Below the pieces are notes generated by a model, which ran no database searches, was not told where the DNA came from, and worked only from the letters and a program-made list of their open reading frames with translations. The position numbers and the translations under genes were made by a program. From a virus (taxonomy: Duplodnaviria > Heunggongvirae > Uroviricota > Caudoviricetes): a stretch of 64,000 nucleotides of DNA. Positions within the stretch are counted from its first letter, which is position 1. Each line of letters starts with the position of its first letter. Shown piece after piece: positions 4,233 through 61,479 of the stretch. The stretch lies in the IMG/VR virus record IMGVR_UViG_3300024273_002067; one strand, given 5' to 3'.

Positions 4233-5716
4233 ATTTGCAATAACATATAGTACAATTTCTTTTTAGGCCTTGACACTGCTACGTAATGAACGTTCTTCTC
4301 TTCTTGATAACCATCCATACCAGGATAAAATGTATAGTAATCCTTTTTATCTGATGGTATTTCTATTTCATTCTTTTCAACTAAATCTTCTGGCAAGGAG
4401 TTTACAACTACACAAGTGTGAAACTCTTTACCCTTAGATTTATGTATTGTTGTAACAAAGTTTTTATTTTCTTTATTTTCTTCTATAAATCTAACCAAAT
4501 CCATAACACCCCCAGGAAAATTATCTAAAACATAATCTAACCTTTTTCTTATTAAAGAATTTATTTTTCCATCCTTTATGTCTTCAACATCTTTTTCCTT
4601 AAGGTAATTAAAATAATTTAAAGGAACTTTTCTACTCAACAAATTAAACTCTATTAACTTAACTATAAAATTTGTTCTTGCCAAAACTACAACTTCATCT
4701 TTATTTTTAATTAATTCAACTAATTTATCAAAATCTATGAATGTTTCGTTTATTTCTCCATCAAATGTGTGAAAAGATTTTGCGTCTAAACTTGAAAACT
4801 GATTAGAATTTGATATTATTTGTTTGGCACTTCTAAAGTTAGTGGTCAAACTCATTCTGTCAACCTTTCTCCTTTTTAACAAAATGTCTTCAATGGCTGC
4901 ACAATTACTTCCGCTATAACCATATATAGACTGATTTAAATCACCAACCAAATAATACTTCTTAGCATTTAACTTCATAAGTATGTCCATTTGAATAGTA
5001 CTAGTGTCTTGATATTCATCTAAGAAAAGATAGTCATATTTGTCTTTAAACATTTTCAACCACTTATTCTCTTTGAGTAAATTTCTCACATCTAATAATA
5101 TATCAGAAAAATCTCTCTTTCTTTTTTCTCTTAAATATTTTGAGTATGGAATGTAAAAGTCTGGAATTCTAACTTTTATACCATCTGCCGTCTGTAATTT
5201 ATATGATGATATTTGAGAGTCTAAAAAATCTGCATCATCATATAGGTTTGATATTATTTTATCAAACTTGAACACTTCTTTTTGAGTGGATTTTTTGGAT
5301 GGCTTATTTGTTATTTTATACCACTCTATGAATTCATAAAAATTAGTTACACCCTTAAACTTACCCATTCTATGCAACATCCAAAAACAAAAGGAATGTA
5401 TTGTAGTTATTCTTATGTCTGGGTTGTTTACTCTTTCCTTTAATTCTTCAACGGCAGCATTTGTAAAGCTAAAGAATATAATTTTTTTGGGGTCTGCTCC
5501 ACGTTTTATTAACTCTTTTAACCTTAGAACACAACAATGAGTTTTCCCTGAGCCTGCACAACTTGATAGTAGAACTGACTTTTTAGTGCGAGAAAGAACG
5601 AATTCTTTTTGTTCATCAGTTAACATTGATATTGCATCATTATCTTCTTTTTCTTGAAAAGCGTCTAATTGATTTTCATCTTTCATTTTTTCCATTTCAT
5701 TTGAAACTTTACTCAT
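4229..5716 (-). CDS. Compact UvrD/Rep-family SF1A helicase
   Basis: SCAGSGKT, FSFTNAA, TIHSF, DEYQD, VGDLNQSIYGY, NFRS, TIHKSKGKEF, YVAVSRPKK. Confidence 0.9.
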   Translation of the reverse strand: MSKVSNEMEKMKDENQLDAFQEKEDNDAISMLTDEQKEFVLSRTKKSVLLSSCAGSGKTHCCVLRLKELIKRGADPKKIIFFSFTNAAVEELKERVNNPDIRITTIHSFCFWMLHRMGKFKGVTNFYEFIEWYKITNKPSKKSTQKEVFKFDKIISNLYDDADFLDSQISSYKLQTADGIKVRIPDFYIPYSKYLREKRKRDFSDILLDVRNLLKENKWLKMFKDKYDYLFLDEYQDTSTIQMDILMKLNAKKYYLVGDLNQSIYGYSGSNCAAIEDILLKRRKVDRMSLTTNFRSAKQIISNSNQFSSLDAKSFHTFDGEINETFIDFDKLVELIKNKDEVVVLARTNFIVKLIEFNLLSRKVPLNYFNYLKEKDVEDIKDGKINSLIRKRLDYVLDNFPGGVMDLVRFIEENKENKNFVTTIHKSKGKEFHTCVVVNSLPEDLVEKNEIEIPSDKKDYYTFYPGMDGYQEEKNVHYVAVSRPKKKLYYMLLQI

Positions 5717-6197
5717 TCCTAATATTAATTATACCACCTTTTTTAGATTTTTTAGACCATAAAAGCAAAAATTCACCTGACAAACCCTTCATGTTGCTCT
5801 TTTCCAAAATTAAACCTCTGCTTTTTTTAAAAACACTTTTAGGTGTAATATTAATTTCTAAATACCCCCTTAATTTTCCAATAGGACATAATTCAACACC
5901 TCCAAAATTAATAACGTCAAACATCTCATCAGACTTATTGTAATAAAGCTGATTTCCTAAAATGTCACAAATTGACATATCACTTAATATAGCGCAAAAA
6001 TCTTCAGAAATCGGACTATTAGATTCTGTTTCGAATGCTAATTTAGCACATAGTCTGTTAATAGTTGTTATAAAAGTATTATTCCATTCCAATCTACTAG
6101 CATAAGGAGTTATGCCTCTAGGTTGTGCAAAGTCATAAGAATACCATTCTTCTTCAACCAACATTTTACAAATACTATTATTGTAACTTGGGTTCAT
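5709..6197 (-). CDS. Short protein resembling the C-terminal part of a gp23-like major capsid protein
   Basis: PYASRLEWNNTFITTINRLCAKL, ISEDFCAILSDM and IGKLRGYLEINITP recall the PYTQKDWNQTLIT.IN..SAQI, VSSE.SAIFDDL and VGTL.GRYQVYRDP blocks of large-phage MCPs (recalled, not searched). Confidence 0.6.
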   Translation of the reverse strand: MNPSYNNSICKMLVEEEWYSYDFAQPRGITPYASRLEWNNTFITTINRLCAKLAFETESNSPISEDFCAILSDMSICDILGNQLYYNKSDEMFDVINFGGVELCPIGKLRGYLEINITPKSVFKKSRGLILEKSNMKGLSGEFLLLWSKKSKKGGIINIRNE

Positions 6198-7011
6198 TTT
6201 GTGTCGTTCTACTTTTCTCCATTATTTTTTCTAAAACTTTTTTTGTATCAGTTGAAAAGTCAGACTTCATAAACCAAGTATAGTATCCTGGGTTGTGTTT
6301 TAAAACATCAACGACTGACTGGTCTTGATATTTTCCAAAATTAAATACAGCAACATTGTTTTCATTTAATACAATCCTTCCAGAATAATCTAACTGACCT
6401 TTGAAATTCGTAAAATCATGAAGTTTAGACATATCGTTTACGATTGGCCTTTCTTCTACGGTTCCATCAGACTCTTCATAGTTAGAATGTTTATAGTAGT
6501 CCAACTGACTCTCCAATATAGCAGCAGTAGCTCTAATGTCATTCATAGCATCATGAGCGCCCTCTAAATCTTTATTACAATAAAACTTATATGCTGCTTT
6601 TAGATTTCTAGGTTCCATCTTCTGAAATATTTTCCACACGTCAATAGAACGTCTATTATTCATGTCAAACTCAGAACCAGCTCTATAAAACTCTTCTATT
6701 AATAAAGGAACATCGAATCTATTACTATTAAATCCACACAAGTCCGCATCGCCTATAAACGATTCTATGCCTTTTGATATTTGCTTGAACGTTGGAGCGT
6801 CTTGAACCATATCATTTGTAATTCCATGAATAGCAGAAGCTTCTTCTGGTATTGTTACAGTTGGATTTACTAATCTATTTTTTTCTTCAGGCTTTCTTCC
6901 GTCAGAATAGTATTTTATCATTCCTATTTGAACTATCCTATCACTAGAAACGCTAACACCTGTAGTCTCTAAGTCAAAGAACACCAAATCTTTACTTAAG
7001 TTTAAATTCAT
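6178..7011 (-). CDS. DnaQ/DEDDh 3'-5' exonuclease
   Basis: FFDLETTG, FNSNRFD, AHDAMND; C-terminal FNFGKY motif as in Bacteroidota homologs. Confidence 0.9.
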   Translation of the reverse strand: MNLNLSKDLVFFDLETTGVSVSSDRIVQIGMIKYYSDGRKPEEKNRLVNPTVTIPEEASAIHGITNDMVQDAPTFKQISKGIESFIGDADLCGFNSNRFDVPLLIEEFYRAGSEFDMNNRRSIDVWKIFQKMEPRNLKAAYKFYCNKDLEGAHDAMNDIRATAAILESQLDYYKHSNYEESDGTVEERPIVNDMSKLHDFTNFKGQLDYSGRIVLNENNVAVFNFGKYQDQSVVDVLKHNPGYYTWFMKSDFSTDTKKVLEKIMEKSRTTQNEPKLQ

Positions 7012-7013
7012 TA

Positions 7014-7196
7014 TTATATTTTTTGTAAATTATCTTTATTTGCCCAAAAAATTCTTTTAACGTTACTTTCGGACACAGTCTCTATCTTAACCATGTTAGA
7101 AGACAAATCTTCTTCTAATTCTTTTAACAAAACATCTGAAGATACAGAGTTTCCATCTTCAAAAAAAAATTCTTCTTTCAACTTATATTTTGGCAT
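7014..7196 (-). CDS. Hypothetical protein (60 aa)
   Basis: Fills the gap between sigma and DnaQ genes with 2-nt spacers. Confidence 0.6.
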   Translation of the reverse strand: MPKYKLKEEFFFEDGNSVSSDVLLKELEEDLSSNMVKIETVSESNVKRIFWANKDNLQKI

Positions 7197-7198
7197 AA

Positions 7199-8065
7199 CT
7201 AACTTAAATGTTGTTTTAAAATTTCACTCCTACTTCTGTGCCTCAAAACTTTTATAGCAGCATCTTTTATTTGCCTAACCCTCTCTCTTGTTAATTCAAA
7301 ATATTCACCCACTTCTTCTAATGTCATTTTTGGATATCCCATTATTCCATAATACATACAAACCACCTCTCTCTGCCTGGGTGCTATGCTTTTTAGTGTT
7401 GATGACAAATCTTTATGCAAAGAATCTGCAGCCACACTAAGGTCTACATCATTCATTTCTCCTTCTGAAATTGTATCGTATAAACTATAACCATCATCAT
7501 CTGAAGAAAGTGGGGCGTCTAATGAGGTTTGAGGCTGAGCTGAACGTAGTAATCTAGATATTTTTATCACATCTTCTTGCATTATTTCTGCTATCTCTTC
7601 TTCTGTTGGCTCTCTTTGATTTATCTGCTCAAAACCTCTGGATTCTTGCTTTAATTTATAATAAGTGCTTATTTGATTTGTTGGCAATCTAACCATTCTG
7701 GAATTGTTTGCTAAAGCCTCTAATATTGACTGTCTAATCCACCAAACGGCATAAGAAATAAACTTAAATCCTCTTGTTTGGTCAAATCTTTCAGCTGCTT
7801 TTATCAAACCATAATTACCCTCATTTACTAGGTCTTCAAAATTTATACCCTTACCTTGATATTGTTTTGCAACACTTATGACAAACCTCAAATTCCCCGT
7901 AATTAACATTTGTCTAGACTTTTCATCTCCTTCTTGAGACTTAGTGGCGAGGTCATGTTCTTCTTCTTCTGTAAGTTGTTTAATTTTATTTATTTCATTT
8001 AAATATGACTTTATAGAATCAGAATCTCTGTTTGTTATTTTGTTAGTTATCTTTAGTTGCCTCAT
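7199..8065 (-). CDS. RNA polymerase sigma-70 factor, Bacteroidota RpoD-like (copy 1)
   Basis: MRQLKIT start, NLRFVISVAKQY, RGFKFISYAVWWIRQ, TLEEVG..FELTRERVRQI. Confidence 0.93.
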   Translation of the reverse strand: MRQLKITNKITNRDSDSIKSYLNEINKIKQLTEEEEHDLATKSQEGDEKSRQMLITGNLRFVISVAKQYQGKGINFEDLVNEGNYGLIKAAERFDQTRGFKFISYAVWWIRQSILEALANNSRMVRLPTNQISTYYKLKQESRGFEQINQREPTEEEIAEIMQEDVIKISRLLRSAQPQTSLDAPLSSDDDGYSLYDTISEGEMNDVDLSVAADSLHKDLSSTLKSIAPRQREVVCMYYGIMGYPKMTLEEVGEYFELTRERVRQIKDAAIKVLRHRSRSEILKQHLS

Positions 8066-8116
8066 TATAATGTTTCTTTAATTGAATTTAGTTTGAGTAT
8101 TAAATTTATACATAAA

Positions 8117-8124
8117 CAAATATA
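8117..8124 (-). promoter_or_regulatory. TATATTTG -7 element upstream of sigma copy 1
   Basis: Exact TAnnTTTG in the intergenic region, just after a terminator. Confidence 0.55.
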
Positions 8125-8142
8125 AGAATTATTTTAAACAAC

Positions 8143-8172
8143 AAAAAAAAATACCACACAAAAGCATGGTAT
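8143..8172 (-). terminator. Intrinsic terminator after sigma copy 2
   Basis: ATACCATGC-TTTT-GTGTGGTAT hairpin followed by a T run. Confidence 0.75.
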
Positions 8173-8197
8173 TAATCTTTAAATAATATATTAAATT

Positions 8198-9061
8198 TTA
8201 CAAATACTTTATTAACAACTCTTTTGTTGATGTGTTTTCTAGAAGCTTCTTCTCAGCCTTTCTAGCGATTTGTCTAATCCTCTCATTGCTATATCCTAAC
8301 TTTCTAGCAATTTCCTCCTTAGAGAGAGCTTGACAATCTATACCATAAGTGTATCTTACAACTATAGCTTCTTTGATTGTAAGTATTTTAAATGCTCTAT
8401 ACATATCTTTCTTTAAAGAATCGTCCAACAGAGAGGAGTCTGGTGCTCCCATACTAGAGTCTTCTATTAAATTAGCTAAAGTTGAAGAACTTTCATCAGA
8501 GCCCACTTTTGCATCTAGAGACGAATGATATATGCCAGCTTGTTGAAGCAATTTACCTGATTCTACATCTATATCCATATACTCACACACCTCAAGCTCC
8601 GAAGGCTCTCTTTCAAGTCTTTGTTGTAAGTGTTGCACAGCTCTAAAGTATTTCCCAGCCTCTAAATTTTTGTTAGAAGGAACTTTTATCATTCTCTTCT
8701 TTTCAGATATGGCTTGTATTATCGTTTGTCTAATCCACCAAACTGCAAAAGATATAAACTTGAACCCCCTAGTGCCATCAAACCTCCCTGCAGCTTTTAT
8801 AAGACCTAAATTACCTTCATTTATTAAATCAGCTAAAGGCAATCCTGTATTTTGATATTTTTTAGCAACGCTAATTACAAACTTTAGATTTGACTGAACC
8901 AACTCTTCTAATGCTTTTTGGTCACCTTCTTGGATTAGCCTTGACAATTCAAACTCCCTCTCTGGGGTGATTGAGTCAAACTTATTTACATCTGTAAAAT
9001 ACTGTTCTATTGATTTTTCCGTTCTGTTTGTAAGGCTCTGCTGAATTTTTAACTGTCTCAT
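8198..9061 (-). CDS. RNA polymerase sigma-70 factor, RpoD-like (copy 2, diverged region 4)
   Basis: MRQLKIQ start, NLKFVISVAKKY, RGFKFISFAVWWIRQ, region 4.2 SKEEIARKLGYSNERIRQI. Confidence 0.92.
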   Translation of the reverse strand: MRQLKIQQSLTNRTEKSIEQYFTDVNKFDSITPEREFELSRLIQEGDQKALEELVQSNLKFVISVAKKYQNTGLPLADLINEGNLGLIKAAGRFDGTRGFKFISFAVWWIRQTIIQAISEKKRMIKVPSNKNLEAGKYFRAVQHLQQRLEREPSELEVCEYMDIDVESGKLLQQAGIYHSSLDAKVGSDESSSTLANLIEDSSMGAPDSSLLDDSLKKDMYRAFKILTIKEAIVVRYTYGIDCQALSKEEIARKLGYSNERIRQIARKAEKKLLENTSTKELLIKYL

Positions 9062-9120
9062 TTTTTTCGCTTTTTTTAAAGATTTATAAGCTAAACGTAA
9101 AATGATTAGAAAAATTACAA

Positions 9121-9912
9121 TTATTTTGTTTTTTTTATTTTATTTATCCTGTCTCTTATTTTTGCACACAACTCTAGATTGTCTTTTCTTATAGCACCAT
9201 CCATAACTTGCTTTAAAAAATTAACATCATATATATCTTCTAACTTACTTTCAATTACACTCTCTAAATTCATTGAACTAACATCATCAGCATACATTTC
9301 TTCAAGATTTAAACCAGAGTATATTTCTTGAATTGGAATTTCAGTAAAATCCAAACTGCTAACTATACTTTCTATAATTTTATCCCTATCCTCATTTGGT
9401 ATGTTTAATATATTAGAAAAATTAAAAATATTAGTATTATCAAAATTCAATTCTTTATTATCGTAATTTGAGCACATTTTTTTAAAATCAATAGGCAATT
9501 CACTTAAATCAAATTTACAAGATACACTATTTAAAGTGTTATATATACTTACATTTTTCTTTACACTCTTTGATGTGGCTACAATATAACATCCTGAAAT
9601 ATCATACAATAAACCTAAATTCTTAAAGAAAGAAGGTTGAGAGTTCTTCTTCCTAATATGATTCATAAATGATTTACTATTTTCCTTTGTGCCAAACAAA
9701 AAATCTATATTATCAGACTCATAATCAATACCTAACTTTTTAGACACGTCTTTACAATCTATAACAAGAAAATAGTTTAACTTTTTAATTCCCAACTTTG
9801 CTATAGTGCTATCAGGATTTTTGTATATAAGCTTTTCTATTTTTTGCTTTATCATAGAAAACCTATTTAAAGATTTAGCCTTTTCGTAAAGTATTAACTC
9901 AACTAACCTCAT
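9121..9912 (-). CDS. Hypothetical protein with C-terminal UvrB/UvrC (UVR) motif
   Basis: C-term LKQVMDGAIRKDNLELCAKIRDRI. Confidence 0.65.
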   Translation of the reverse strand: MRLVELILYEKAKSLNRFSMIKQKIEKLIYKNPDSTIAKLGIKKLNYFLVIDCKDVSKKLGIDYESDNIDFLFGTKENSKSFMNHIRKKNSQPSFFKNLGLLYDISGCYIVATSKSVKKNVSIYNTLNSVSCKFDLSELPIDFKKMCSNYDNKELNFDNTNIFNFSNILNIPNEDRDKIIESIVSSLDFTEIPIQEIYSGLNLEEMYADDVSSMNLESVIESKLEDIYDVNFLKQVMDGAIRKDNLELCAKIRDRINKIKKTK

Positions 9913-48728: not shown

Positions 48729-49277
48729 TTGAATATTTATGAATATTATCAACTATTTATATATAACAACAAAAATACGAAAAATAATATTGATATGAAA
48801 GAGAATAAGCTAATTTTAGGCTTTGGGAGTGTTAAGGAATTGATGGATTCTGTACTCGGACTAAAGAACTCACTTGTAAATTTTGTACTTGCCGCATGCA
48901 CAGCTTTAACATCATTTATAACACAATATATATGGGATGATGCTTCTGCGGTATATTTTATGTTGTTTTTAATTTTAATTGACGCATCTACTGGTGTATG
49001 GAAATCTATTGTAAACAGAAGTTTTAGCAGCAGTAAATTGCCTAGGATTTTTGTAATTTCCATAATATATGTTTTAATGCTATCTATAAGCTGGCATGCC
49101 GCAAAGCACTCAAGCTTGTTTGTCTGGTTGCCTGGTATGGTTTATGGGGGACTAATTGGAACTCCTTTAGTTTCTATATATGAAAACTTTGCCGAATTAG
49201 GCTATGTACCCAAAGGGTTAGTTTATGATATTAAAGAAAAAATAAAAAATTACTTTAACAAAAAACATAACAACTAG
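48729..49277 (+). CDS. Phage holin family protein (likely start ATG 48795)
   Basis: 3-4 TM helices, LIDASTGVWKS..FSSSK, SIYENF. Confidence 0.75.
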   Translation: MNIYEYYQLFIYNNKNTKNNIDMKENKLILGFGSVKELMDSVLGLKNSLVNFVLAACTALTSFITQYIWDDASAVYFMLFLILIDASTGVWKSIVNRSFSSSKLPRIFVISIIYVLMLSISWHAAKHSSLFVWLPGMVYGGLIGTPLVSIYENFAELGYVPKGLVYDIKEKIKNYFNKKHNN

Positions 49278-51499
49278 TATACCCTCCTAAATTGACATCC
49301 ATCCTGAAATTTTAACCAATTTCTTTCTTTGGAAAACTTAGTCAAATATATACCTCCCTTTTCCACTAAATCCTTTATTCTATCATAAGCATCTGACCAA
49401 ACTACCATCTTAACAGATGCACCTCCATCGCTGAGTTCTAGAGACCAATATTTTTTGTTGTTTTTAGATATTTTTTCTACAACATCTTTTATCACAAAAT
49501 AATAATATTTATCAGGATTTTCATAAGAAGTAACGGGTTCAACGTTAAAGTCATACTCTTCTTTAAATTGCTTCTTTATCTTAGATATTTTATCAAAAAG
49601 CTGTAAATCCAAACTACAAACATCTATAAAATCTTTGTACTTAATATCCTTGGGAGTTGGCTCAAACTTCTCCTTAAGACTCTCCTCTATAATGTCAAAT
49701 CTATTTTGACCAAACAAGTCCATTTGCATAGTATTGCTTTTTATTTTAAACTTACGAAACTCCATAAGCTCTTCTCTAGACTCTGACCAATCATCAAAAA
49801 CTCCTGCCTTTAAGCAGGCTTCAAAGTTTGCTTTATTGAATTTAGAAAATTTATGCATAAAAAACTTATCCTTACCAACATTAGAAATATCGACTTTTTG
49901 CAATTCTTCATAGGCAATTTCTCCCATACCATTTATACTAGAAAAACCCATTAAAATAGTTTCTTCATCTAACATACCCCATTCCCATTTTGACTTTCTA
50001 TTAGGAGGCAAAACTTTTATACCCTTAGTGAAAGCGCCCATTATAGCCGATGAAAGCCAAGACTCATCATCTTTAGCATGATTTAATAGAGCTGCATAGA
50101 ATTCAGTAGGATAGTACCTCTTCATAAACAGGGTTTGCATAGCAACATAACTGTAACTCACTGAGTGTGAGCGATTAAAGGAATATCCTAAATACTTTAC
50201 TAACCACTCTTCTATGTCTTTAACTTCATTTTCCTTAAGCCCCTTTTCTTTACAGCCTGACTTAAACTTTTCCCAAAGTGTCAAATACTCTTTATAGTTC
50301 TTATTATTATATTCTTTTTCTTCCAATTTATCTCCTGACAAATTCTTTTTTATGATTTTTGAGGCCTTATCCATAACTTTCCTCAAATTATCACCCTCAC
50401 CAAGAGTCATGCCTGCCAGCTCATGAGCTATAAACATTAGTTGCTCTTGAAATATTAGTACACCATTAGTATTTCTAAGTAAAGGCTCTAGAGATGGGTG
50501 CACCAAACTTATTTCTTCTGGGTTTTTCTTATTTCTGATGTACTCCTCGTGAGCACCAACTCCCATAGGTCCAGGTCTGTATAATGCATTTGCAGCCACC
50601 ATCTCTTCGAAGCTCTCTATGTGCATTCTTTTTATCAGTTTAGACATACCATCAGACTCAAATTGAAACACCCCTTGATTGTTTCCGCTTCTAATCTCTT
50701 CAAACAAATCAGAATTGTCTAAATCAACATACTTTACCTGCTCAGAAACATCTATACCCCTATTCTCTTTAACTAACCTTATAGCTTGTTTAAGTATGTT
50801 TAATGTTGTTAAATTTAATCTGTCTAACTTTAATATACCTAAGTCAGATAAGTCTTTACCACTACCAGACTCTTGAAATCCAGAAACAGTGACTCCTTTT
50901 ACCATATTTACAGGCATATATTCCCAAACAGGGCCTGGAGTTATGACTATGCCTGCGGCATGTTTTCCCAAATTTCTAACTTGACCCTGTAGAGTGAGTG
51001 TTGTATCTATTGTTTTTTTGTTACTGGGGCTTTCTATCCATTTCTTAACCAAGTCAGAAGCTTCAGGTGTATTAGGGTGTTGTTCTAGCCAATCTTTTAA
51101 ATCGCCATCATATTTCATAAACATTTTTGGCATTTCCTTGGTAACTGCAAATATTTCAGAATCAAACCCTCCGTCTCCTCCAAATGCCTTGACTACATCT
51201 TTTATACAACCCTTCTCATTAAATGTTGAAAATGTTATTACTGGGAAAACGCATTCTTTTCCATATTTGTTATACAAGAACTCATCAGTCTTTACGTCTG
51301 AACCAGTCTCAAAATCTATGTCAATATCTGGTGGAGAATTGTGTATTAACACACTGGAAATCAACGTGTTATGGCACTCACTTAAATCTTTACTTGAAGA
51401 GAAGAATAAATTATCTTTATCAAAAGATAGGTCATACACCTTTCCTTTATAAGGAATTTTTTTTATACTTCTAATTTTAGATATTTTCATAAGACTCAA
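49274..51499 (-). CDS. dnaE: DNA polymerase III alpha, C-terminal half preceded by split-intein IntC (likely start ATG 51490)
   Basis: IntC KVYDL..VLIHN then SPPDIDIDF; GKHAAG, LKLDRL, GVFQFES, LYRPGP, LIFQEQ, YSFNRSH. Confidence 0.93.
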   Translation of the reverse strand: MSLMKISKIRSIKKIPYKGKVYDLSFDKDNLFFSSSKDLSECHNTLISSVLIHNSPPDIDIDFETGSDVKTDEFLYNKYGKECVFPVITFSTFNEKGCIKDVVKAFGGDGGFDSEIFAVTKEMPKMFMKYDGDLKDWLEQHPNTPEASDLVKKWIESPSNKKTIDTTLTLQGQVRNLGKHAAGIVITPGPVWEYMPVNMVKGVTVSGFQESGSGKDLSDLGILKLDRLNLTTLNILKQAIRLVKENRGIDVSEQVKYVDLDNSDLFEEIRSGNNQGVFQFESDGMSKLIKRMHIESFEEMVAANALYRPGPMGVGAHEEYIRNKKNPEEISLVHPSLEPLLRNTNGVLIFQEQLMFIAHELAGMTLGEGDNLRKVMDKASKIIKKNLSGDKLEEKEYNNKNYKEYLTLWEKFKSGCKEKGLKENEVKDIEEWLVKYLGYSFNRSHSVSYSYVAMQTLFMKRYYPTEFYAALLNHAKDDESWLSSAIMGAFTKGIKVLPPNRKSKWEWGMLDEETILMGFSSINGMGEIAYEELQKVDISNVGKDKFFMHKFSKFNKANFEACLKAGVFDDWSESREELMEFRKFKIKSNTMQMDLFGQNRFDIIEESLKEKFEPTPKDIKYKDFIDVCSLDLQLFDKISKIKKQFKEEYDFNVEPVTSYENPDKYYYFVIKDVVEKISKNNKKYWSLELSDGGASVKMVVWSDAYDRIKDLVEKGGIYLTKFSKERNWLKFQDGCQFRRVY
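51338..51490 (-). mobile_element. Split intein, C-terminal part (IntC)
   Basis: MKISKIRSIKKIPYKGKVYDL...VLIHN followed by Ser+1. Confidence 0.9.
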
Positions 51500-52577
51500 C
51501 TATATTTTTAATCATTATTATAATATTTTCCCTATTCTCTTTCCAGTCGTTCTCCCAAATTTCAATAAAATTACATTTGAGAATATTTATTATCTCATTT
51601 TTTCTCTTTCTGTCATCCTTCCAAATTTCACTTGCATATTTGTTTTTATTTTTATGATAAAAACTATTTTCATAAATTAAAGGATTACAATGCCAATAGT
51701 CTCCCATAACCTCTATCACTATATTGTATTCTTCATTATAATAATCAATCTTATAGAATTTATTTTTATTTATAACTAATATCTTCTGCCCTAAAGGTGA
51801 TTTTTTAAAAAAAGAGTCTCCTGGGACTTCTTTTGATATTTCAGCAATAATTTCTCTTTCCAACTTAGATGTCTCTCCAAAATTTTTATTTACCTTTTTA
51901 GCATTTGCAAGCTGCCATTCATCAGAATAAAATAAATTATCTACTCCAAATTTTTCTTGCATAGAAATCGTTACTGCAGAATAATGACAACCTCTCTCTA
52001 AAAACCATTTAACACCATATTTATTCTCTATTGTTTTTGAAATTTTATCTCTAATCTCTTTTATTTGAACAGGGGATGTCATTCCAGTAACTCCATAATT
52101 TTCATTTAAACTCCTATTAAAAGAGTCTCTATATTCTCTAGTTTTATAGTAAAGTGATTTATAATCTTTCTCCGAAATTATATAACCATGTGACCAAAAT
52201 TTTACTCCCCCACGAGATGGATGTAATTTAACTAAAACATTTTTTTTACTAAACCTATCATAAATCTGAATCTTCGCATCTGTTATTGAAATCTCTTTAT
52301 TTAAATCAGTTTTTACTCTAACTGACTTCTGACCCCTTCCGCTTTTTCCAAAAAAACACCTTGTTGCTTTTCCAATATTTACCTCTCCTACAAAGACAAA
52401 CTTTCCAACCACATTTTCCAAAGAAATAAATAAATCACTCTTATATTCCCAATCTCTTTTTTCTTCTTCAGATGCTAACTTTAGCTCTTGAAAGCCAACT
52501 AAAGCTTCACACAAATCTTTTTGTGTATCAAAATTATTATTTTCTATTTCTTCTTTTTTCATTTTACTATAATCCAT
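51477..52577 (-). CDS. Free-standing Vsr/DUF559-like (EDxHD-type) homing endonuclease between the dnaE halves
   Basis: KYGV/KFGV repeats, SKLERE, IDYY, IEVMGDYWH, IWE.DW. Confidence 0.8.
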   Translation of the reverse strand: MDYSKMKKEEIENNNFDTQKDLCEALVGFQELKLASEEEKRDWEYKSDLFISLENVVGKFVFVGEVNIGKATRCFFGKSGRGQKSVRVKTDLNKEISITDAKIQIYDRFSKKNVLVKLHPSRGGVKFWSHGYIISEKDYKSLYYKTREYRDSFNRSLNENYGVTGMTSPVQIKEIRDKISKTIENKYGVKWFLERGCHYSAVTISMQEKFGVDNLFYSDEWQLANAKKVNKNFGETSKLEREIIAEISKEVPGDSFFKKSPLGQKILVINKNKFYKIDYYNEEYNIVIEVMGDYWHCNPLIYENSFYHKNKNKYASEIWKDDRKRKNEIINILKCNFIEIWENDWKENRENIIIMIKNIVESYENI

Positions 52578-52607
52578 GTCTATAAATATAGATAAAAACT
52601 TTAAACT

Positions 52608-54833
52608 TTAAAAAGAAAACAGTAAGTCTGTTTCTTTTATTTCATCAACTCTTATTTCAATTCTTTTTTTATCTCTGAAAACAGGAATTATATGACACCC
52701 TGTGAGCTGAACAACAGAACCGTCTTCAGTCTCTATCTCAAATATATTCTCATGCTCTTCCAGCTCTCTCTCATGCTTCTGAACCAAGACTCCTTTTCCA
52801 GTTTCAGTCTGCACTGGGTCTCCGACTTTAACATCCACTACATTTTTATAAGAACCATCTTTCATCATAACATTACAATTATCTGTAAGACAATTTCTGG
52901 CTGGATTTAAGAATCTTTCAAAATACAAATCAAACCTTATCGGGTCAATCTTTGTTATGTCTAAGCACCAAGAAAGTAAAGAGCCTGCCGCACTTCCCCT
53001 TCCTGGCCCTACCTCTATATCGTTGTCGGCACAAAACCTTATAAGCTCCCAAACCACAAGAAAATAATCCAACATTTTCTTTTCTTTTATAACCTCCAGC
53101 TCATAGTCTAGCCTTTCTCTGTACTTAGAAATTTTATCATCATCTATTTCAACAGGCCCACGCTCTTTATATATATTAAGCTTTTGATTAAGCTTAGCAT
53201 GTGACAACCTTCTTATTATCTCTTCTCCATCATTGGTTTTAAAAAAGTCATAAACATCTTTAGTTGGCTTATATTTCGGATATTTCTCTACGTCTGTTTC
53301 AAAGTCAAAATTACATATAGAAGCAATTTTTTCACTTGTAATCATACACATTTTTATGAATTCTTCACTATAATTAAATCCATAATTCTTGTTCATTTCT
53401 AATATCTCAGACTCGTCAACGTAGTACATGTCCCTACTGTCTTTGGTCCTAGCTCTTTTTATAGACCTTTTTTGATTTATTGAAATCAATACATCTTGTA
53501 GTACTTTATCCTTTTTTTCTGGGTAGTATATGTCATTAGAAATTATTACAGCCATACTATATTTGTCTGACATGTTAATTATGAAGTCATTATAATTCCT
53601 TTGTACCTCATTGTCCTCAAGGGAAATTTCGGCTATATAAGACTTTTTTCCAAATGCACTTAACATGCTCACTAGATAATCTTCAGCATCTTTATATTTG
53701 CCCATTTGCAAATATTTACATATTGTTCCGTTTTTAGATGAAGTTGTTAATATCAAACCCTCTTTATTCTCCAAAATCCATGAAGTTTTTATTCTAGGAA
53801 CTCTATAAAAACCTTCAGCAAATGATAAATAATTTATTTTATTAATATTAACAAAACCCTCTTTATTTGTAACTATTATTTTTTGAAGAACATTTTTATC
53901 TTGTTGCTTAGGCTCATACTCACCACCAATACTATCGTTTAAATGAAATTCACATCCTATTATCGGTTTTATGTTTTTAGATTTACACTTTTGATAAAAA
54001 GAAAAAGCACCAGACAAGCTACCTTTATCTGTCAAAACTAAAGATTTGTGATTATACTTTTTGGCTAAATCAATATAATCAGAAGTTGAACCAGCACCTT
54101 CTAGTACAGAATGATAAGTGTGAACTCCAAAATTTACCATAGAGAAGTCGTTATTAAAATCTCCATTTTTTGACTTCCACTTATTAATTATATTTTGTTC
54201 AGAATCAACTGAAGACATATGTGTTTTGAAGTCATCCCCAAAACCTAATCCACCTATTCTTCTGAGCTCGAAAAAACATCTAGCCAACGCCTCAACATCA
54301 ACCAGTGCATCATGAGCATCTTCAAAAGCCTTGTTAAACAACTTCTTGTGCAATTCTGTAAGAGTAGGAGGCTTAAGTCCCATCTTGCCTTGTATTCTAC
54401 AAAAATCTATAGTAGAATTCATAGTGCATATATTCACTATGTTTCTCATTGAATTTTTCATTTTTAATCTAAAAAACTCAGAAGCCGTAACTTTATTGTC
54501 GAAACTTACATTGTGTGCAACAATAAAATTAGAATTCTCTATATCTTTAGAAAATTCTTTCAAGACATCAGAAATTAAAACACCATCTCTGTTAGCTCGT
54601 TCATTAGTTATTCTATGAATTCTAATGCTATCATCTGGTATGACAAAACCGTCTGGTTTTATAATTTTATTATTAGAGCTTATGACTTTACCATTTATGT
54701 CATACACCTTCCATGCCAACTGAACTATTCTGGGCCAATTGTCCGTATCGCTAACTGGTGCGCTAAAATCTTCAGGAAGCCCTGTGGTTTCTGTATCAAA
54801 TACTATAAACATAATAAATTTTATATCATACAA
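52608..54833 (-). CDS. dnaE: DNA polymerase III alpha, N-terminal half (DEDD exonuclease + PHP) ending in split-intein IntN (likely start ATG 54812)
   Basis: FDTETTG..NWPRIVQ, HTYHS, GPGRGSAAGS, FERFLNPARN, then CLTD. Confidence 0.93.
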   Translation of the reverse strand: MYDIKFIMFIVFDTETTGLPEDFSAPVSDTDNWPRIVQLAWKVYDINGKVISSNNKIIKPDGFVIPDDSIRIHRITNERANRDGVLISDVLKEFSKDIENSNFIVAHNVSFDNKVTASEFFRLKMKNSMRNIVNICTMNSTIDFCRIQGKMGLKPPTLTELHKKLFNKAFEDAHDALVDVEALARCFFELRRIGGLGFGDDFKTHMSSVDSEQNIINKWKSKNGDFNNDFSMVNFGVHTYHSVLEGAGSTSDYIDLAKKYNHKSLVLTDKGSLSGAFSFYQKCKSKNIKPIIGCEFHLNDSIGGEYEPKQQDKNVLQKIIVTNKEGFVNINKINYLSFAEGFYRVPRIKTSWILENKEGLILTTSSKNGTICKYLQMGKYKDAEDYLVSMLSAFGKKSYIAEISLEDNEVQRNYNDFIINMSDKYSMAVIISNDIYYPEKKDKVLQDVLISINQKRSIKRARTKDSRDMYYVDESEILEMNKNYGFNYSEEFIKMCMITSEKIASICNFDFETDVEKYPKYKPTKDVYDFFKTNDGEEIIRRLSHAKLNQKLNIYKERGPVEIDDDKISKYRERLDYELEVIKEKKMLDYFLVVWELIRFCADNDIEVGPGRGSAAGSLLSWCLDITKIDPIRFDLYFERFLNPARNCLTDNCNVMMKDGSYKNVVDVKVGDPVQTETGKGVLVQKHERELEEHENIFEIETEDGSVVQLTGCHIIPVFRDKKRIEIRVDEIKETDLLFSF
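52611..52892 (-). mobile_element. Split intein, N-terminal part (IntN, 94 aa)
   Basis: Cys1 CLTDNCNV..DGS.K, block B LTGCH, ends at the stop codon. Confidence 0.9.
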
Positions 54834-55788: not shown

Positions 55789-55818
55789 AAAATATTTTTT
55801 AATAATTAGTCATTAGAA

Positions 55819-57642
55819 TCAAATAGTATTTCCTTCATTTAACAAATCATTTCCTTCATCATCTAACCCAGTCTTTTCGTCTATGCTGTTTAACTTAGAG
55901 GTTATAGAGTCAATTAAATTTTTTGTTTTAGTATTTAAATTCTTATTTTTTTTGTTCAAAATGTTAACGTTTTTACTTGCATTAACCTTATCATCTATTG
56001 TTGCTATGTTTAAATCCTTTAAATCTTGCTCCAAAAATAAAACACTCTCTTCTAGAGGCTCATCTACAGCAGGCTCATCAACAGACGGCTCATCTACAGC
56101 AGGCTCATCAAAACTTGCATCATCTCCAGCATCTCCAGCATCTCCAGAAAGAGTATCTTCTGCTGCCTTAAACTTTTCGTCTATATCAGCAAAAAGACCA
56201 GTTTGCATATACTCCTCTGGTGCAGTCTCTATTTCTGAGAACATTTTTTTCTCTACTTTTTTCTGTCTTAATATTTGTTTTATTTCCGCCTTGGAGAATC
56301 CCATAACATACTCCATAGCCCAAGTGTAGGATACTGGCGAAGTTGGTTCTGCAGTGTACATTTCCTTAAAAACTTCAAGCCTAGCCTTCATTGTCTCTAA
56401 CTTTAACAACTCCTGCTGTGTGGATGGATTAGTTAACTTTAGGTTGAAATTGTCCATATCATCCTCAAATCCCAAAAGAAATAGGTGAACGTTTGCAATT
56501 CTTCTAAGCTCTATTATTATATTTTCTTGTATTCTATTTATAGTTCTACTGAACCTCAAATCAGCCTGAGATAAAGCTGAACCACCAGGCATAGATTCTG
56601 CATAATTCAAATAAGGCTTAGGCACTTTCAGTGCTGCAAACAATTTATTTTGCAAATATTCCACATCTTGTATCTCCCCTAGATTAGATGCTCCAGGAAG
56701 CGTTTCTATCCTAGAAGACTTATCCCCTCTAATGGGAAGAAAGTAATCTTCCTCCATTGTTAAGGGATTGTATTTTAAATTCATTTGACCAGTCTTCTGG
56801 TCAACAATAGGAGATTTTTTTAATTCTCTTTTTATTCTTTCAACATATTGTTGTACATCTGCAGACTCTAAGTTACCAACTTCAATATAATGAACCCTTC
56901 TCTCAGGGGCTCTAATAATTCTATATACTAACATGGCATCTTCTGCTAGCTGAAGTTGTTTCCAAAGCTTTCTGGCAGGGTCTAAAACGCTTCTACCATA
57001 AGGTAATTTTGTACCATCTGAAACTAACCTAAAGTGAGCTATTTGAAACTCTTCAAAGTACATGTTATTAATGTCCCACTTAAATCTAGAGGAATTTACA
57101 TTACCATCAAAAGCTTCTTCTCTATGAATTTCTGCAACAGGCAACATTCTTACATCGTATATTCCTTCTTGTTGGTCTATTTCCAATTTAGCAAAAGCAT
57201 CTCCGAACTTAATCATTTCTCTAATCCAAAAAGTCAAATTATATTCTATATTTAATCTGTCATGAAACAAATCTTTTAGAATAGTTTTGATTCTATCATT
57301 TTCAGAATATATTGACAATATATCACCCCTTTCATCTCTAGTTACAGTTTCATCTGTAATTATATCTAATGCTGCAGAAACTTCAGGAGACATGTCCATG
57401 GCTCTATAATCATTATATGCACCAAGCCTATCTGTGTCATAATAAACACTTCTAGAATATATATCTTGAGCAATTTTTTGAGACTGCACATCTAGAAAGT
57501 CTTGCTGCCTCTGTTGTACTGGTGTAGATTGAGGGCTAGAAATATTCCCAGAAATAACTTGCTTCTCTTGAGGCAGTGGCCTAGAAGTCCTTCCCCTCTT
57601 CAGTCTGTCCAATAAATTTATAAATACACTTTCGTCTGCCAT
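55819..57642 (-). CDS. Portal protein (T4 gp20-like)
   Basis: EVSAALDII.DE, EDAMLVYRIIRAPERRV..IEVGNL, EDYFLPIRG, IETLPG, KLFAALKVP. Confidence 0.93.
   Translation of the reverse strand: MADESVFINLLDRLKRGRTSRPLPQEKQVISGNISSPQSTPVQQRQQDFLDVQSQKIAQDIYSRSVYYDTDRLGAYNDYRAMDMSPEVSAALDIITDETVTRDERGDILSIYSENDRIKTILKDLFHDRLNIEYNLTFWIREMIKFGDAFAKLEIDQQEGIYDVRMLPVAEIHREEAFDGNVNSSRFKWDINNMYFEEFQIAHFRLVSDGTKLPYGRSVLDPARKLWKQLQLAEDAMLVYRIIRAPERRVHYIEVGNLESADVQQYVERIKRELKKSPIVDQKTGQMNLKYNPLTMEEDYFLPIRGDKSSRIETLPGASNLGEIQDVEYLQNKLFAALKVPKPYLNYAESMPGGSALSQADLRFSRTINRIQENIIIELRRIANVHLFLLGFEDDMDNFNLKLTNPSTQQELLKLETMKARLEVFKEMYTAEPTSPVSYTWAMEYVMGFSKAEIKQILRQKKVEKKMFSEIETAPEEYMQTGLFADIDEKFKAAEDTLSGDAGDAGDDASFDEPAVDEPSVDEPAVDEPLEESVLFLEQDLKDLNIATIDDKVNASKNVNILNKKNKNLNTKTKNLIDSITSKLNSIDEKTGLDDEGNDLLNEGNTI
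56057..56147. repeat. Short tandem repeats in portal C-terminal acidic tail (15-bp DEP(A/S)V and 9-bp GDA units)
   Basis: ggctcatc(t/a)acag units (3 full plus a partial) and catctccag x3. Confidence 0.9.
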
Positions 57643-57653
57643 TTTTCTTTTTA

Positions 57654-58379
57654 TTAATAAATATTAAGTTTTTCTTTTTTAAGCTCTGTAGAGGGGTTTT
57701 TATAACACCTTACATCAACTAAATGAGGTGCTCTCATGTGAAACACGCTACTTCCATTACTAATAGAATATTTTTTATGTTTCTTTTCTATTAATAAATC
57801 TTTTTTATAAAAAGACAAAGCGTCACTTAATTTTAAGTGAAAATTTTTAAAAGCCATATCACACATCCCCCCAGTTGATGACAAACAAATTAACTTACCA
57901 CCTTCAACCAAAGACTGTGATGAGTACGTTAATATATTTTCTAAATCTTGATGATAAGCGGCCTCGTCTATAATAATAACATCAAACCTAGAACCTCTTA
58001 ACTTATAGTAGTCATTAAAAGTTCTAAAACAAGAGCCTTCAAGATGTAAATCTTTCGCACCCCCTCTAAGCTTGTCTTCAGGATAGCCCCTTAATAAAAA
58101 TCCTAGATGAGTTAAACATTCTGTTGACTCAAAAGGTGAAGCTCCAATAAAAGCTATTTCTTTTCTATCGTATGAACTCCTCATTAAATTGGCTACATAA
58201 TATAAAATCACAGAGGTCATACCCGACTGCCTACTTTTCAGTATGGATATAACATTATTTCTATCAATAGTGTGTAATACTGATTTTTGATTTAAATCAA
58301 AATATTCAGGAATAACGCCCTTACTTTTAGAGTGTAAAAAATCTTTTATATTTGTTAAAAAACTTGTCATCAATGACAA
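57654..58379 (-). CDS. Terminase large-subunit ATPase-only paralog (likely start ATG 58370)
   Basis: KSRQSGMT, LRGSRFDVIIIDEAAY and KLICLSST align with the adjacent TerL; no nuclease domain. Confidence 0.8.
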   Translation of the reverse strand: MSLMTSFLTNIKDFLHSKSKGVIPEYFDLNQKSVLHTIDRNNVISILKSRQSGMTSVILYYVANLMRSSYDRKEIAFIGASPFESTECLTHLGFLLRGYPEDKLRGGAKDLHLEGSCFRTFNDYYKLRGSRFDVIIIDEAAYHQDLENILTYSSQSLVEGGKLICLSSTGGMCDMAFKNFHLKLSDALSFYKKDLLIEKKHKKYSISNGSSVFHMRAPHLVDVRCYKNPSTELKKEKLNIY

Positions 58380-58409
58380 TAAAGGACTTTTTATAAAAAA
58401 GTAAATAGA

Positions 58410-60071
58410 CTATGCTTTTATTGGCCCGTATAACCAAGAAGTGTCATTCAAATCGTCATCATCATCCCAACTATCTTTATTTGAACCATCTAAACTTAAT
58501 GAGCTAACGTCTTTTTGGCTAAAACTTATCATATCTAACATTTCTTTAGTTCTTTTCTTATTCCAAAATACAGATTCAAACTCAGTATCTCTAATTAACA
58601 GCGCAATAGCCATTCCAAATATTAAATCATCATTAAATCCATTTTCATGCTCTGCCTTATCTCCTTTGTAAACAAAAGTTTCAAACTCTACAAGCAATCT
58701 TAGAGAGTTTATTTTAATTTCCATTTCTCTCATATATTTTACCAACGAACTCATGAGTAAAGGTCTAGTTTTTACCGTTGTCTGAAATCCTGGAACATCT
58801 GTATCTTTGTCAACAACATAATTGTGAGTTCTATTGTATAATTTAACTGCAGATTTAGATATATACATTCTTTCTTTAGGATATTTCAAGGTATTCTTTA
58901 GCATTAACGTTGTTGCTAAACCAAAACTGTTACACTCAACTGCCATAAAAGCATTATTATAATCCGTTCCCACCTTGTAAAGAAGTTCTGCAAATACATC
59001 AGGAACTATTTTTCCTTGAAATTCACCAACTTGCTCTAAGCTGTCAGCGTCTATTATTTGAACTGTAGAGAAATCGGCACCATCTCCTCTACCAACGTCA
59101 GACCCAATTATATAGTTCCCACCTTCTTTTGGTTTTTTCCATATATGAAAAGATGTTACATATTCACAAAAACTGCCATCTTTTTTCTTAAAATCATAAT
59201 AGCATACAGGCTTTTTATCGCCTATGTCTTTGACATATTTTTGTATTATTGAACTATCTATGACAACAGCGGTTGAGCCTTCAAAAGACAAATCTAATTC
59301 TTGTGCAATTTTAATTGTATTATGGTGCATTCTTTGACACTCTCCATCATACCATGGGCTCCATGGATATTCTTTTCCATCAGAGTCTATTCTAGTCTCT
59401 AACCCTTTAGATAATATAGGATGTATAGACCAATGCAACTTTATAGGAAAGAAGTTGCCCCTACCCTTATTTGCTTGAGTCCATGTTTGGTGATAAAGAT
59501 TTCCAGTACCCTTAGGTGTAGAAATCATAATACACTTACCTTGGGTAGCAGCCAAAGCCAGCCCAGCCCCCATCCATATATCTTGAGCATGCTCAATAAA
59601 CGCGGTCTCATCTAATATCAGGCAAGTTAAAGATTCTCCTCTACCAGCCTGCTTACTACTGGCAACAGCCTTAACCCAAGAGCCATTAGAAAAAGATATT
59701 TGCTTTGTATTATTTATTAAAGTTTCTTCTGGTAGCATCCAATCTGGTAATCTGTCCAAAAATTGTTTAACGGTATTCAAAAACCTAACGGCACCATTGC
59801 CACTATCAGCAACTACCAATATTCTTTCATCAGGACAAAAGGTCAACCTCCAGGCAACATATAAAGCTGATATGACTGACAGGCCCATCTGTCTAGATTT
59901 TAAAACTATTGAGTTTTGACTATCATTAAACTGATTAAGACAATCTTCCTGATAGGGAAAACACGTCATTTTCCCCATCTGCTGTTTCTCCATGTCAAAA
60001 ACATATCCATATGTATTCGCAAAATATACTGGGCTTTTTGCGCAAGAAACGTATTCTTCAATATAATTCAT
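58410..60071 (-). CDS. terL: Terminase large subunit
   Basis: KSRQMGLS, RGESLTCLILDETAF, ISTPKG, GSDVGRGDGADFS, NDDLIFG. Confidence 0.95.
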   Translation of the reverse strand: MNYIEEYVSCAKSPVYFANTYGYVFDMEKQQMGKMTCFPYQEDCLNQFNDSQNSIVLKSRQMGLSVISALYVAWRLTFCPDERILVVADSGNGAVRFLNTVKQFLDRLPDWMLPEETLINNTKQISFSNGSWVKAVASSKQAGRGESLTCLILDETAFIEHAQDIWMGAGLALAATQGKCIMISTPKGTGNLYHQTWTQANKGRGNFFPIKLHWSIHPILSKGLETRIDSDGKEYPWSPWYDGECQRMHHNTIKIAQELDLSFEGSTAVVIDSSIIQKYVKDIGDKKPVCYYDFKKKDGSFCEYVTSFHIWKKPKEGGNYIIGSDVGRGDGADFSTVQIIDADSLEQVGEFQGKIVPDVFAELLYKVGTDYNNAFMAVECNSFGLATTLMLKNTLKYPKERMYISKSAVKLYNRTHNYVVDKDTDVPGFQTTVKTRPLLMSSLVKYMREMEIKINSLRLLVEFETFVYKGDKAEHENGFNDDLIFGMAIALLIRDTEFESVFWNKKRTKEMLDMISFSQKDVSSLSLDGSNKDSWDDDDDLNDTSWLYGPIKA

Positions 60072-60146
60072 AGTTCACTATTATTAAATATAAATATTAA
60101 GCAATTATTAAAATACTATACAGAGTCTGAATCGCATTTTTTTAAT

Positions 60147-60674
60147 CTAAAAATCATAACTTTTGTTGGATAAGTTTTTTATTGTCTTAGGCTCTAGCGT
60201 TACAGACATTTGCTTCTGAATGTTTTGTCCCCTATAGTAAAATATTGGGTTTTTTGGTATGCAGGATATTAAATTAATTTTTATTATTTTTTTTAAACTT
60301 TTATTAATAGCGTAAACATGTATATCTTTAGCTTTTTTATTGAAAATATTTTGTTCGTAATATTTATTTTTCTTGTTATAAAAGCTATGTATCCAATCGT
60401 TTATTTCTGAACCATCTGTAGAGCCATTGTTGCTAATAATATGAAACTTATAACTATAATCTTTATATACCTCTGGTGCAAATGATGAATTTATTAATCG
60501 ATTATAATCTAATGAAAAGGCTAAAACTTGACTATTTGTATTAGAATATGGGTCAAAATCAATAATAACATAATTTTCCCATAGATTATCTTTGTCAATC
60601 TTTTCTGTTAACAAATAACTTTTAGAGTATAAACCTTTATATAATGGAAGAAAAGAAAATTTTGACCTTTTCAT
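60147..60674 (-). CDS. Hypothetical protein, possibly a highly diverged tail-tube-like paralog
   Basis: KDIHVYAINKSLKKIIKINLISCIPK...MSVTLEP recalls the C-terminal half of tube proteins. Confidence 0.35.
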   Translation of the reverse strand: MKRSKFSFLPLYKGLYSKSYLLTEKIDKDNLWENYVIIDFDPYSNTNSQVLAFSLDYNRLINSSFAPEVYKDYSYKFHIISNNGSTDGSEINDWIHSFYNKKNKYYEQNIFNKKAKDIHVYAINKSLKKIIKINLISCIPKNPIFYYRGQNIQKQMSVTLEPKTIKNLSNKSYDF

Positions 60675-61075: not shown

Positions 61076-61479
61076 TTATTTAAAATTAAATAATTCTGTA
61101 TTTACTATTGCTCTGTTAATTTCATAGTTTAAAAATAATTCTTCTTCTTTTTCTATATCTCTAAAAGAATAAAAAACTAATATTTTATTTTCAATATCCC
61201 ATGTATATACTACATTAGGGTCATTAGAAGAATTAAATAAGGCACCATAACCAAAAGGTATCACATATGGGAAGGTTCCACTATCGTCTACTCTTATTGT
61301 ATTTATTTTTATTGGCCTTAAGTGATGAGTGTATGAAGCTTCATCTTCTGTCATATATAAACAATGACACTCTTCTAAAATCTCTCCTTTACTTATTTTT
61401 TCTTTTGAAAAAACCCCCAGCCATGAATGTCACTCTTTCTAGGCTCAATAGATTTATTTTTATATAAAACATTTTTCAT
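61076..61479 (-). pseudogene. SET-domain protein gene interrupted by a -1 frameshift at G5T6 (61408-61418)
   Basis: Upstream frame MKNVLYKNKSIEPRKSDIHGWG; the -1 frame continues VFSKEKISKGEILEECH...GYGALFNSSNDPN..RDIEKEEELFLNY. Confidence 0.8.

Follow-up and report, generated by a model that had tools for sequence, protein, structure and literature searches.

A stand-alone terminase-type ATPase gene at the terL-portal junction of marine jumbo phages, exchanged as a cassette between lineages and with a possible accessory role in DNA packaging

We analysed a stretch of 64,000 nucleotides from a tailed phage (Caudoviricetes; IMG/VR record IMGVR_UViG_3300024273_002067), in the following called the window, with respect to a short gene on the minus strand that is located between terL, encoding the large terminase subunit TerL, and the portal gene. 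The open reading frame (ORF) runs uninterrupted from 57654 to 58379 and encodes 241 aa when read from the TTG start used in the original prediction; the homologues and the sequence itself place the true start at the ATG at 58370 (MTS...), resulting in a protein of 238 aa that is referred to as the short ATPase below. Eleven nt separate the end of this ORF from the portal ATG. The genes at the locus and the motifs of the short ATPase are as follows, where calls of invariance refer to a family alignment of 18 sequences.

The ATPase gene and its neighbours

57654-58370, minus strand: stand-alone gene for a TerL-type ATPase domain, defined by the ORF, the homologue-inferred start and the homology and fold of the TerL ATPase (the TTG at 58379 adds three codons)
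58287-58289, minus strand: Q31, adenine-binding Q motif, aligned with Q143 of T4 gp17 and nearly invariant
58215-58238, minus strand: deviant P-loop K48-S-R50-Q51-S-G53-M-T55, aligned with SRQLGKTT of gp17; K48, R50, Q51, G53 and T55 invariant
57996-57998, minus strand: R128 of the LRG motif, a candidate trans-acting arginine 10-11 residues upstream of Walker B, aligned with VRG of gp17
57963-57983, minus strand: Walker B D133-VIII-D138-E139, aligned with IDE of gp17; D133, I135, I136, D138, E139 and A140 invariant
57873-57893, minus strand: C (coupling) motif L-I-C-L-S-S-T, aligned with ITTT of gp17; I164, C165 and S167 invariant
58410-60071, minus strand: terL, full-length large terminase of 553 aa with ATPase and nuclease (phrog_2, E=8e-37; Terminase_6N), 88-100% identical in close relatives
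55819-57642, minus strand: T4-type portal gene, 607 aa (Pfam Portal_T4, E=4e-79)

Sequence, profile and fold comparisons confirm that the short ATPase is a genuine homologue of the TerL ATPase domain without the nuclease domain, in agreement with the original prediction of an ATPase-only terminase gene at this position. BLASTP aligns it with the TerL of the window at 26% identity over 146 aa (E=4e-5), the family profile matches TerL with a probability of 93.6% in hhalign (E=2e-7), and the best PHROG is phrog_2, terminase large subunit (E=1e-5); the Pfam match to Terminase_6N is below threshold (E=0.15). An AlphaFold2 model built with 18 homologues has a mean predicted local distance difference test score (pLDDT) of 68, with residues 1-185 mostly between 70 and 88, and its top PDB match in Foldseek is the ATPase domain of T4 gp17 (2o0j, E=7e-8). 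Further fold matches are the P74-26, HK97 and D6E terminases, the TerL of PhiV-1 bound to Avs3 (8dgc_E), RecD, PhoH2 and the helicase domain of NAT10. Neither Terminase_6C nor any other nuclease was matched by the short ATPase in Pfam, PHROGs or the fold search, and all homologues are 205-241 aa long, so that the predicted absence of the nuclease domain holds for every part of the protein. The region corresponding to the lid (N-subdomain II) consists of about 40-55 residues after the last core strand, and residues 186-241 are modelled with pLDDT below 50. The same sources (Pfam, PHROGs and the model) revealed no small terminase (TerS) family, helix-turn-helix or TerS oligomerisation core in the short ATPase, the fold being that of a TerL ATPase. 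A complex prediction of TerL with the short ATPase scored 0.00, which counts neither for nor against binding.

Every motif of the TerL ATPase could be mapped in the short ATPase by profile alignment to T4 gp17, and the four motif pairs that had originally been aligned with the TerL of the window are all real. The canonical GK lysine of the P-loop is missing both in the short ATPase (G-M-T) and in the resident TerL (KSRQMGLS), and both keep a lysine five residues upstream, an arrangement that we take to resemble the deviant P-loop of lambda gpA. Since the resident TerL, which must be functional, has the same form, the unusual P-loop is no sign of inactivation. R128, at a position which presumably corresponds to the trans-acting arginine finger of P74-26 TerL, is the least constant of the catalytic-type residues: it is R in the window and in most members, and I or T in P0009, P0010, P0013-17 and P0034. 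Collectively, these data show that selection preserves the nucleotide-binding site, namely the Q motif, the K-x-RQ-x-G-h-T P-loop, the DE of Walker B and the C-motif.

Range, selection and cassette exchange

About 40 intact homologues of the short ATPase were found. A word-indexed search gave 17 clusters of homologues (49-98% identity, 190-238 aa), and in an exhaustive profile search the deeper members P0019-P0022, P0025, P0026, P0029, P0034 and P0036 (205-241 aa) ranked above any full-length TerL. In every genomic context recovered (L001, a 390-kb contig; L003-L009; L010-L012; L108 and L110) the gene order is terL (553-556 aa), short ATPase and T4-type portal, usually with DnaQ-DnaE farther on. 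Two IMG/VR relatives of 79-83 kb contain exactly two TerL-type ATPases each, TerL and the short ATPase, and their CheckV completeness of 26-28% implies genomes of about 300 kb. About ten studies contributed the sequencing runs with the locus, all of them metagenomes of marine water or sediment. By tblastn no match to the short ATPase was obtained among 50,697 phage records, the deeper members P0019 and P0027 matched nothing in such records but the one full-length TerL that T4-like phages have (at most 28% identity), and IMG/VR scans with P0021, P0025 and P0036 gave no matches. A second place with a TerL was seen in LR756508.

None of 80 outgroup IMG/VR loci, with a TerL 32-50% identical to that of the window, had a second TerL-type ATPase, and the portal gene follows terL within 70 nt in 68 of 74 outgroup loci, including the nearest outgroups with about 50% TerL identity. 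The short ATPase was therefore acquired specifically by this clade of marine jumbo phages, through a single insertion at the terL-portal junction, and every member seen has retained it. The remaining six of the 74 more distant relatives (L034, L043, L052, L073, L089 and L104) carry one to five unrelated small ORFs in the gap, and the junction is thus an occasional cargo site outside the clade.

Among eight close loci the identity is 88-100% for TerL and 86-100% for the portal protein, compared with 53-97% for the short ATPase. The ratio of nonsynonymous to synonymous divergence (dN/dS, Nei-Gojobori) is 0.01-0.06 for terL, 0.03-0.09 for portal and 0.18-0.37 for the short ATPase, and the pairwise values for the latter are all well below 1, apart from a single pair of near-identical sequences in which the counts are tiny. 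The short ATPase is under purifying selection that is 5-10 times more relaxed than that on its neighbours. In deeper comparisons TerL and portal remain 80-84% and 80-83% identical, respectively, against 23-37% for the short ATPases (56% in one pair); at a TerL identity of about 80% the short ATPases are 23-31% identical. Outside the nucleotide site, divergence of the protein is thus about 4-5 times as fast as that of its two neighbours. The portal gene has one strongly variable part, the acidic, repeat-like C-terminus (GDAGDAGDD..., DEPxVDEP...; around 55830-56330 in the window and 8139-8370 in L007), where windows between relatives fall to 38-67% nucleotide identity and one marine population has a 9-nt indel.

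The gene had been predicted to be an old and maintained copy and not debris, with a dN/dS estimate suggested as a check and frequent frameshifts or neutral decay among homologues as the observation that would speak against it. The dN/dS values given above are those of a maintained gene, and the roughly 40 intact homologues, their fixed synteny and the invariant catalytic motifs point in the same direction. When frameshifts and decay were looked for, the only aberrant homologues were three singletons on contigs of 723-1784 bp. The haplotype of the window was present in contigs from four independent studies with no indel reported inside the short ATPase, and one of these contigs spans 55800-60100 with 105 differences.

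It is clear from the synonymous divergence (dS) that the short ATPase does not share the history of its flanks. Between L003 and L005 the flanks have a dS of about 0.2 and the short ATPase 0.91, and the sliding-window identity is 92-100% in terL, only 42-88% in the short ATPase and 95% from the start of portal. Between L007 and L009 the situation is reversed, with a dS of 0.9-1.4 in the flanks and 0.007 in the short ATPase, and with identities of about 86% and 98-100%, respectively. Because dS in the gene can be either higher or lower than in the flanks and the breakpoints lie at the ends of the gene, we conclude that the short ATPase has moved between lineages as an exact cassette with conserved promoter-like elements at its borders. 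The close clade contains three or more allele types that are deeply diverged.

The promoter-like elements at the locus are the following.

57648-57691, minus strand: 44-nt invariant element, a promoter-like signal or portal leader, which extends over the final 12 codons and the stop codon of the ORF into the spacer
58401-58409, minus strand: TCTATTTAC, a one-off variant of the promoter-like motif in the spacer between terL and the short ATPase gene, about 30 nt upstream of the short ATPase ATG
60087-60101, minus strand: CTTAATATTTATATT, promoter-like element 16-30 nt upstream of the terL ATG

The heptamer TATTTAT occurs within 60 nt upstream of 19 of the 54 genes in the window, where about 1.4 would be expected, mostly 10-38 nt from the ATG, and the copies of this type include those of terL (-25) and portal (-21). 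The portal copy, at 57657-57663, lies within the 44-nt element, 21 nt upstream of the portal ATG. The TCTATTTAC variant is invariant in seven loci including L010 and is also present in L108. Since an element of the TATTTA[TC] type is found upstream of each of them, terL, the short ATPase gene and portal each have their own copy of the signal. Judged from its sequence and placement, TATTTAT is probably a promoter-like signal of the phage itself, reminiscent of single-element late promoters.

The last 11 residues of the short ATPase, TELKKEKLNIY, are invariant in the close family, and a docking peptide was considered. The 44-nt element is unchanged at the nucleotide level in five loci, synonymous sites included, and in L010, L012, L108 and L110 the ORF ends eight codons earlier, leaving the AAGAAAA...TATTTATT element as non-coding DNA upstream of the portal ATG. 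For these two reasons the docking peptide was rejected as the main explanation, and the invariant tail is the ORF running through the promoter-like element or leader of portal, and as a feature of the protein it is at most secondary.

Related genes, origin and surroundings

The closest well-known relative in terms of fold is the TerL of the T4 gp17 type (Terminase_6N; PDB 2o0j and 3cpe), which has the same ASCE fold and the same motifs in the same order; the resident TerL in addition shares the unusual K-x-RQ-x-G-h-[ST] P-loop. Unlike these proteins the short ATPase has less than half the length, lacks the RNase H-like nuclease, is not universal and evolves 4-5 times faster. There is no similarity in sequence or fold to TerS, which is not an ATPase. 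TerS is a small, fast-evolving and mosaic packaging component, which some phages exchange without exchanging TerL, and its gene is normally located beside terL. No small terminase was identified in the window or in the material from relatives that was examined.

The same layout is found in coliphage 186 (NC_001317), where an ORF at 1215-1961 (NP_052250.1, "similar to Orf12"), the "W-type" short terminase paralogue of P2/186-like phages, is an ATPase-only gene lying between terL (Orf12) and portal. Its product of 248 aa retains the P-loop and the DE of Walker B. In contrast to the gene of the window, however, it is 37% identical to the TerL of 186 itself (E=3e-44), only the P-loop (14 columns) aligns with the window family (hhalign probability 7.6%), and it belongs to another TerL lineage, the P2 gpP type, in temperate enterobacterial phages. 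Because it is close to its own TerL and aligns with the window family only in the P-loop, the 186 gene represents an independent duplication with the same layout.

A further stand-alone gene of this kind adjoins terL in the jumbo phage Escherichia phage 121Q, whose gp3 (YP_009101597.1, 227 aa, annotated "hypothetical protein") matches the profile of the short form with a probability of 90.5% (E=1.3e-6). It differs from the window gene in being directly upstream of and overlapping terL, and not downstream between terL and portal, and in having a degenerate site (PR-IGTT as P-loop and IIIDMS as Walker B) where that of the window family is intact; from these residues it is probably a pseudo-ATPase. 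The "truncated terminase" genes of Rak2-like phages are grouped with 121Q gp3 in this comparison. The window family is distinguished by its intact site and by a cassette behaviour that has not been reported for the 186 and 121Q genes.

The nearest relatives in the trees described below are metagenomic short TerL-like ATPases fused to a ribbon-helix-helix (RHH) domain. They share the ATPase core without nuclease and differ in their size (270-320 aa), in the C-terminal RHH domain and in their location away from terL and portal. P0033 scores 24.8 bits against Pfam RHH_1, above the cutoff of 20.5 bits, and the RHH pattern is visible in at least ten aligned members. The class includes P0033, P0057, P0028, P0027, P0038, P0031, P0042, P0048, P0052, P0055 and P0068 and the loci L013 and L014, with the genes beside a SNF2 helicase and among RNA-ligase genes; it is sizeable and apparently undescribed. 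The possibility that the tail of the window family is a remnant RHH domain was tried and rejected, given an hhalign probability of 0.2% against the RHH alignment and no Pfam RHH match.

In the ESM Atlas many clusters of proteins of 200-260 aa contain Terminase_6N only. In the literature we found no paper describing truncated or TerL-like terminase ATPases as a class, and a review of jumbo phages makes no mention of such genes (PMC7824862). A stand-alone copy of the TerL ATPase beside terL is thus known at the level of annotation and unexplained, and the window family is new.

For the origin of the short ATPase, 159 ATPase domains were analysed with FastTree and 56 with IQ-TREE under LG+C20. 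In both trees the short ATPases form a monophyletic clade (SH-aLRT 97) that groups with other clades of short forms only, and the resident TerL nests apart from it among full-length TerLs of the T4 type. An approximately unbiased (AU) test did not reject a tree uniting the short ATPases with the resident TerL (delta lnL 22, p=0.11), long branches being involved. The gene may have arisen by an ancient tandem duplication of the resident terL followed by acceleration, a scenario compatible with that p value. Of the original description as an old, maintained duplicate, the old and maintained homologue stands, and a descent from the phage's own terL would be at odds with the best trees and compatible with the AU test.

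Some features of the surrounding genes may be recorded here. The conserved 175-aa gene directly upstream of terL (60147-60674, minus strand) has only a Pfam match to the gp19 tail-tube family at E=0.07; a search of the atlas gave no usable match for it, and its fold model has a pLDDT of 39.8. Two genes upstream of this tube-like gene, L003, L004 and L009 have a 164-aa DOT1-like methyltransferase (PF08123; 2796-3290), and the corresponding region of the window contains a SET-domain ORF (61076-61479); this variable slot can thus be filled by either of two distinct folds resembling histone methyltransferases. In the window the DnaQ-DnaE gene (49274-54833) is divided into a 741-aa N part with an intein-like end, a 366-aa ORF and a C part, and likewise in L007 (9160-12693; 734, 366 and 738 aa, with Hint/Intein matches). 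The gene is unbroken, at 1326-1327 aa, in L001, L003 and L005 (from about 9517) as well as in L008, L009 and L010, and the insertion is therefore polymorphic in the clade. Over-long genes for TerL (913 aa and 900-980 aa) and for portal (992-1047 aa) were seen in related phages (L030 at 3418-6159 and 6219-9362; L110 at 867-3845; proteins of 900-980 aa such as P0041, P0070 and P0077), and they probably carry inteins. One cluster of the atlas pairs LAGLIDADG_3 with Terminase_6N.

A possible packaging accessory and its alternatives

The reading that we prefer is that the short ATPase is an ATP-binding and probably ATP-hydrolysing, non-core accessory of DNA packaging. Taken together with the identity of the gene this stands at about an even chance, and the role itself falls somewhat short of that. 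According to this proposal the protein would bind and probably hydrolyse ATP, as suggested by the conservation of the motifs, and would be made together with TerL and portal, as suggested by the promoter-like elements upstream of all three genes. Being non-core, it would be a tunable component, docking through the face of its nucleotide site onto TerL or onto terminase-bound DNA and in this way modulating the assembly or the firing of the motor. Docking through this face is the most economical assumption, since the nucleotide site doubles as the interface between subunits in ASCE rings and is the only part of the protein conserved at depth. Speculatively, the variable arginine of the RG motif would fit a subunit that receives an arginine finger and does not need to donate one. 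The independently derived copy in the same position in 186 lends this proposal support by analogy, as a case of convergence. None of the roles originally suggested (decoy for Avs-type terminase sensors, packaging regulator or separate motor) drew specific support from the analysis. A second or separate motor is unlikely for a protein that lacks the nuclease domain, has no lid region modelled with confidence and varies in the RG arginine.

Several observations weigh against an accessory role in packaging. Alleles of the short ATPase that are only 65% identical are found beside TerLs that are 98% and portals that are 97% identical, and with such neighbours there is no sign of co-evolution with either of them, so that only invariant surfaces could serve for contact. 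The Walker B of one deep member reads DD, and in P0029 both the P-loop and Walker B are degenerate, for which reason hydrolysis may not be needed universally; the arginine-finger candidate R128 is replaced in about a third of the close family. Finally, as unrelated cargo fills the junction in six of 74 relatives, position alone is no proof of a packaging role.

With its dN/dS 5-10 times that of its neighbours, its deeply diverged alleles and its exact exchange as a cassette, the short ATPase evolves in the typical manner of conflict genes and could accordingly belong to a conflict module, as a TerL look-alike directed against host sensors of the TerL fold (a decoy for Avs1-3-like proteins) or against co-infecting relatives (a dominant-negative or self/non-self subunit). 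The junction accepts accessory cargo in other phages, the Avs3-bound TerL 8dgc_E is among the fold matches, and direct binding to the TerL fold, apparently to its monomers, is described for Avs sensors (PMC13581612). We nevertheless consider this explanation unlikely: no TerL decoy against Avs was found described in the literature, an extra TerL fold should be an additional trigger for receptors that sense the fold rather than a shield, and the pairwise dN/dS stays well below 1 apart from the near-identical pair with its tiny counts. Cassette exchange with conserved flanks would suit a specificity subunit resembling TerS, which would help in recognising the phage's own DNA and in starting packaging and be swapped as a unit, perhaps with a nearby site, on the model of the mosaic small-terminase genes of P22-like phages. 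The C-terminal RHH DNA-binding domain in sister clades and the net basic tail agree with such a function, as does, weakly, the lack of a T4-type TerS (PF11053) in the two partial IMG/VR relatives (79-83 kb, 26-28% complete), a search that covered about a quarter of any genome, so that a canonical TerS may sit elsewhere. However, no DNA-binding domain can be recognised in the window family, the tail of which is unrelated to RHH and modelled with low confidence, and the RHH forms adjoin neither terL nor portal, which makes this role distinctly improbable.

An accessory ATPase with no relation to packaging, i.e. a generic ASCE or helicase-like "moron" in an insertion-tolerant junction, would account for RecD, PhoH2 and the NAT10 helicase domain among the fold matches, for the unrelated cargo in six of 74 relatives and for the RHH-fused relatives among genes of nucleic-acid metabolism (RNA ligases and the SNF2 helicase). 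The best matches in sequence and fold are consistently to TerL, though, placement beside terL arose independently in 186 and 121Q, and the position is fixed across the clade despite the turnover of cassettes; we give this explanation little credence. That the gene is a decaying, functionless remnant of a terL duplication, as its much faster evolution relative to the neighbours and the three aberrant singletons on contigs of 723-1784 bp might suggest, can practically be dismissed in view of some 40 intact copies across deep divergence with invariant catalytic motifs, the dN/dS of 0.18-0.37, the lack of indels in four independent populations and the recent spread of near-identical alleles between diverged genomes. 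More far-reaching, and in our view doubtful although worth stating, is the idea that the short ATPase is a swappable subunit for specificity or conflict, in which a frozen nucleotide face would plug into the terminase ring or a host receptor while hypervariable surfaces are under frequency-dependent selection. If this were true, the alleles would decide which DNA or which co-infecting relative is packaged, or which host sensor is evaded, and the independent 186-like and Rak2-like genes would point to a general and unrecognised layer of packaging control.

No other parts of tailed-phage assembly are as conserved or as well studied as terminase and portal, which are also the main targets of bacterial immune receptors that sense protein folds. 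A cassette gene between them that conserves its ATP site and is otherwise hypervariable, together with the comparable genes of independent origin in two or more groups of cultured coliphages (186-like and 121Q-like), suggests an unrecognised accessory layer, either of packaging control or of conflict over the terminase. Although the marine phage is uncultured, the analogues in 186 and 121Q make the general question testable in the laboratory now.

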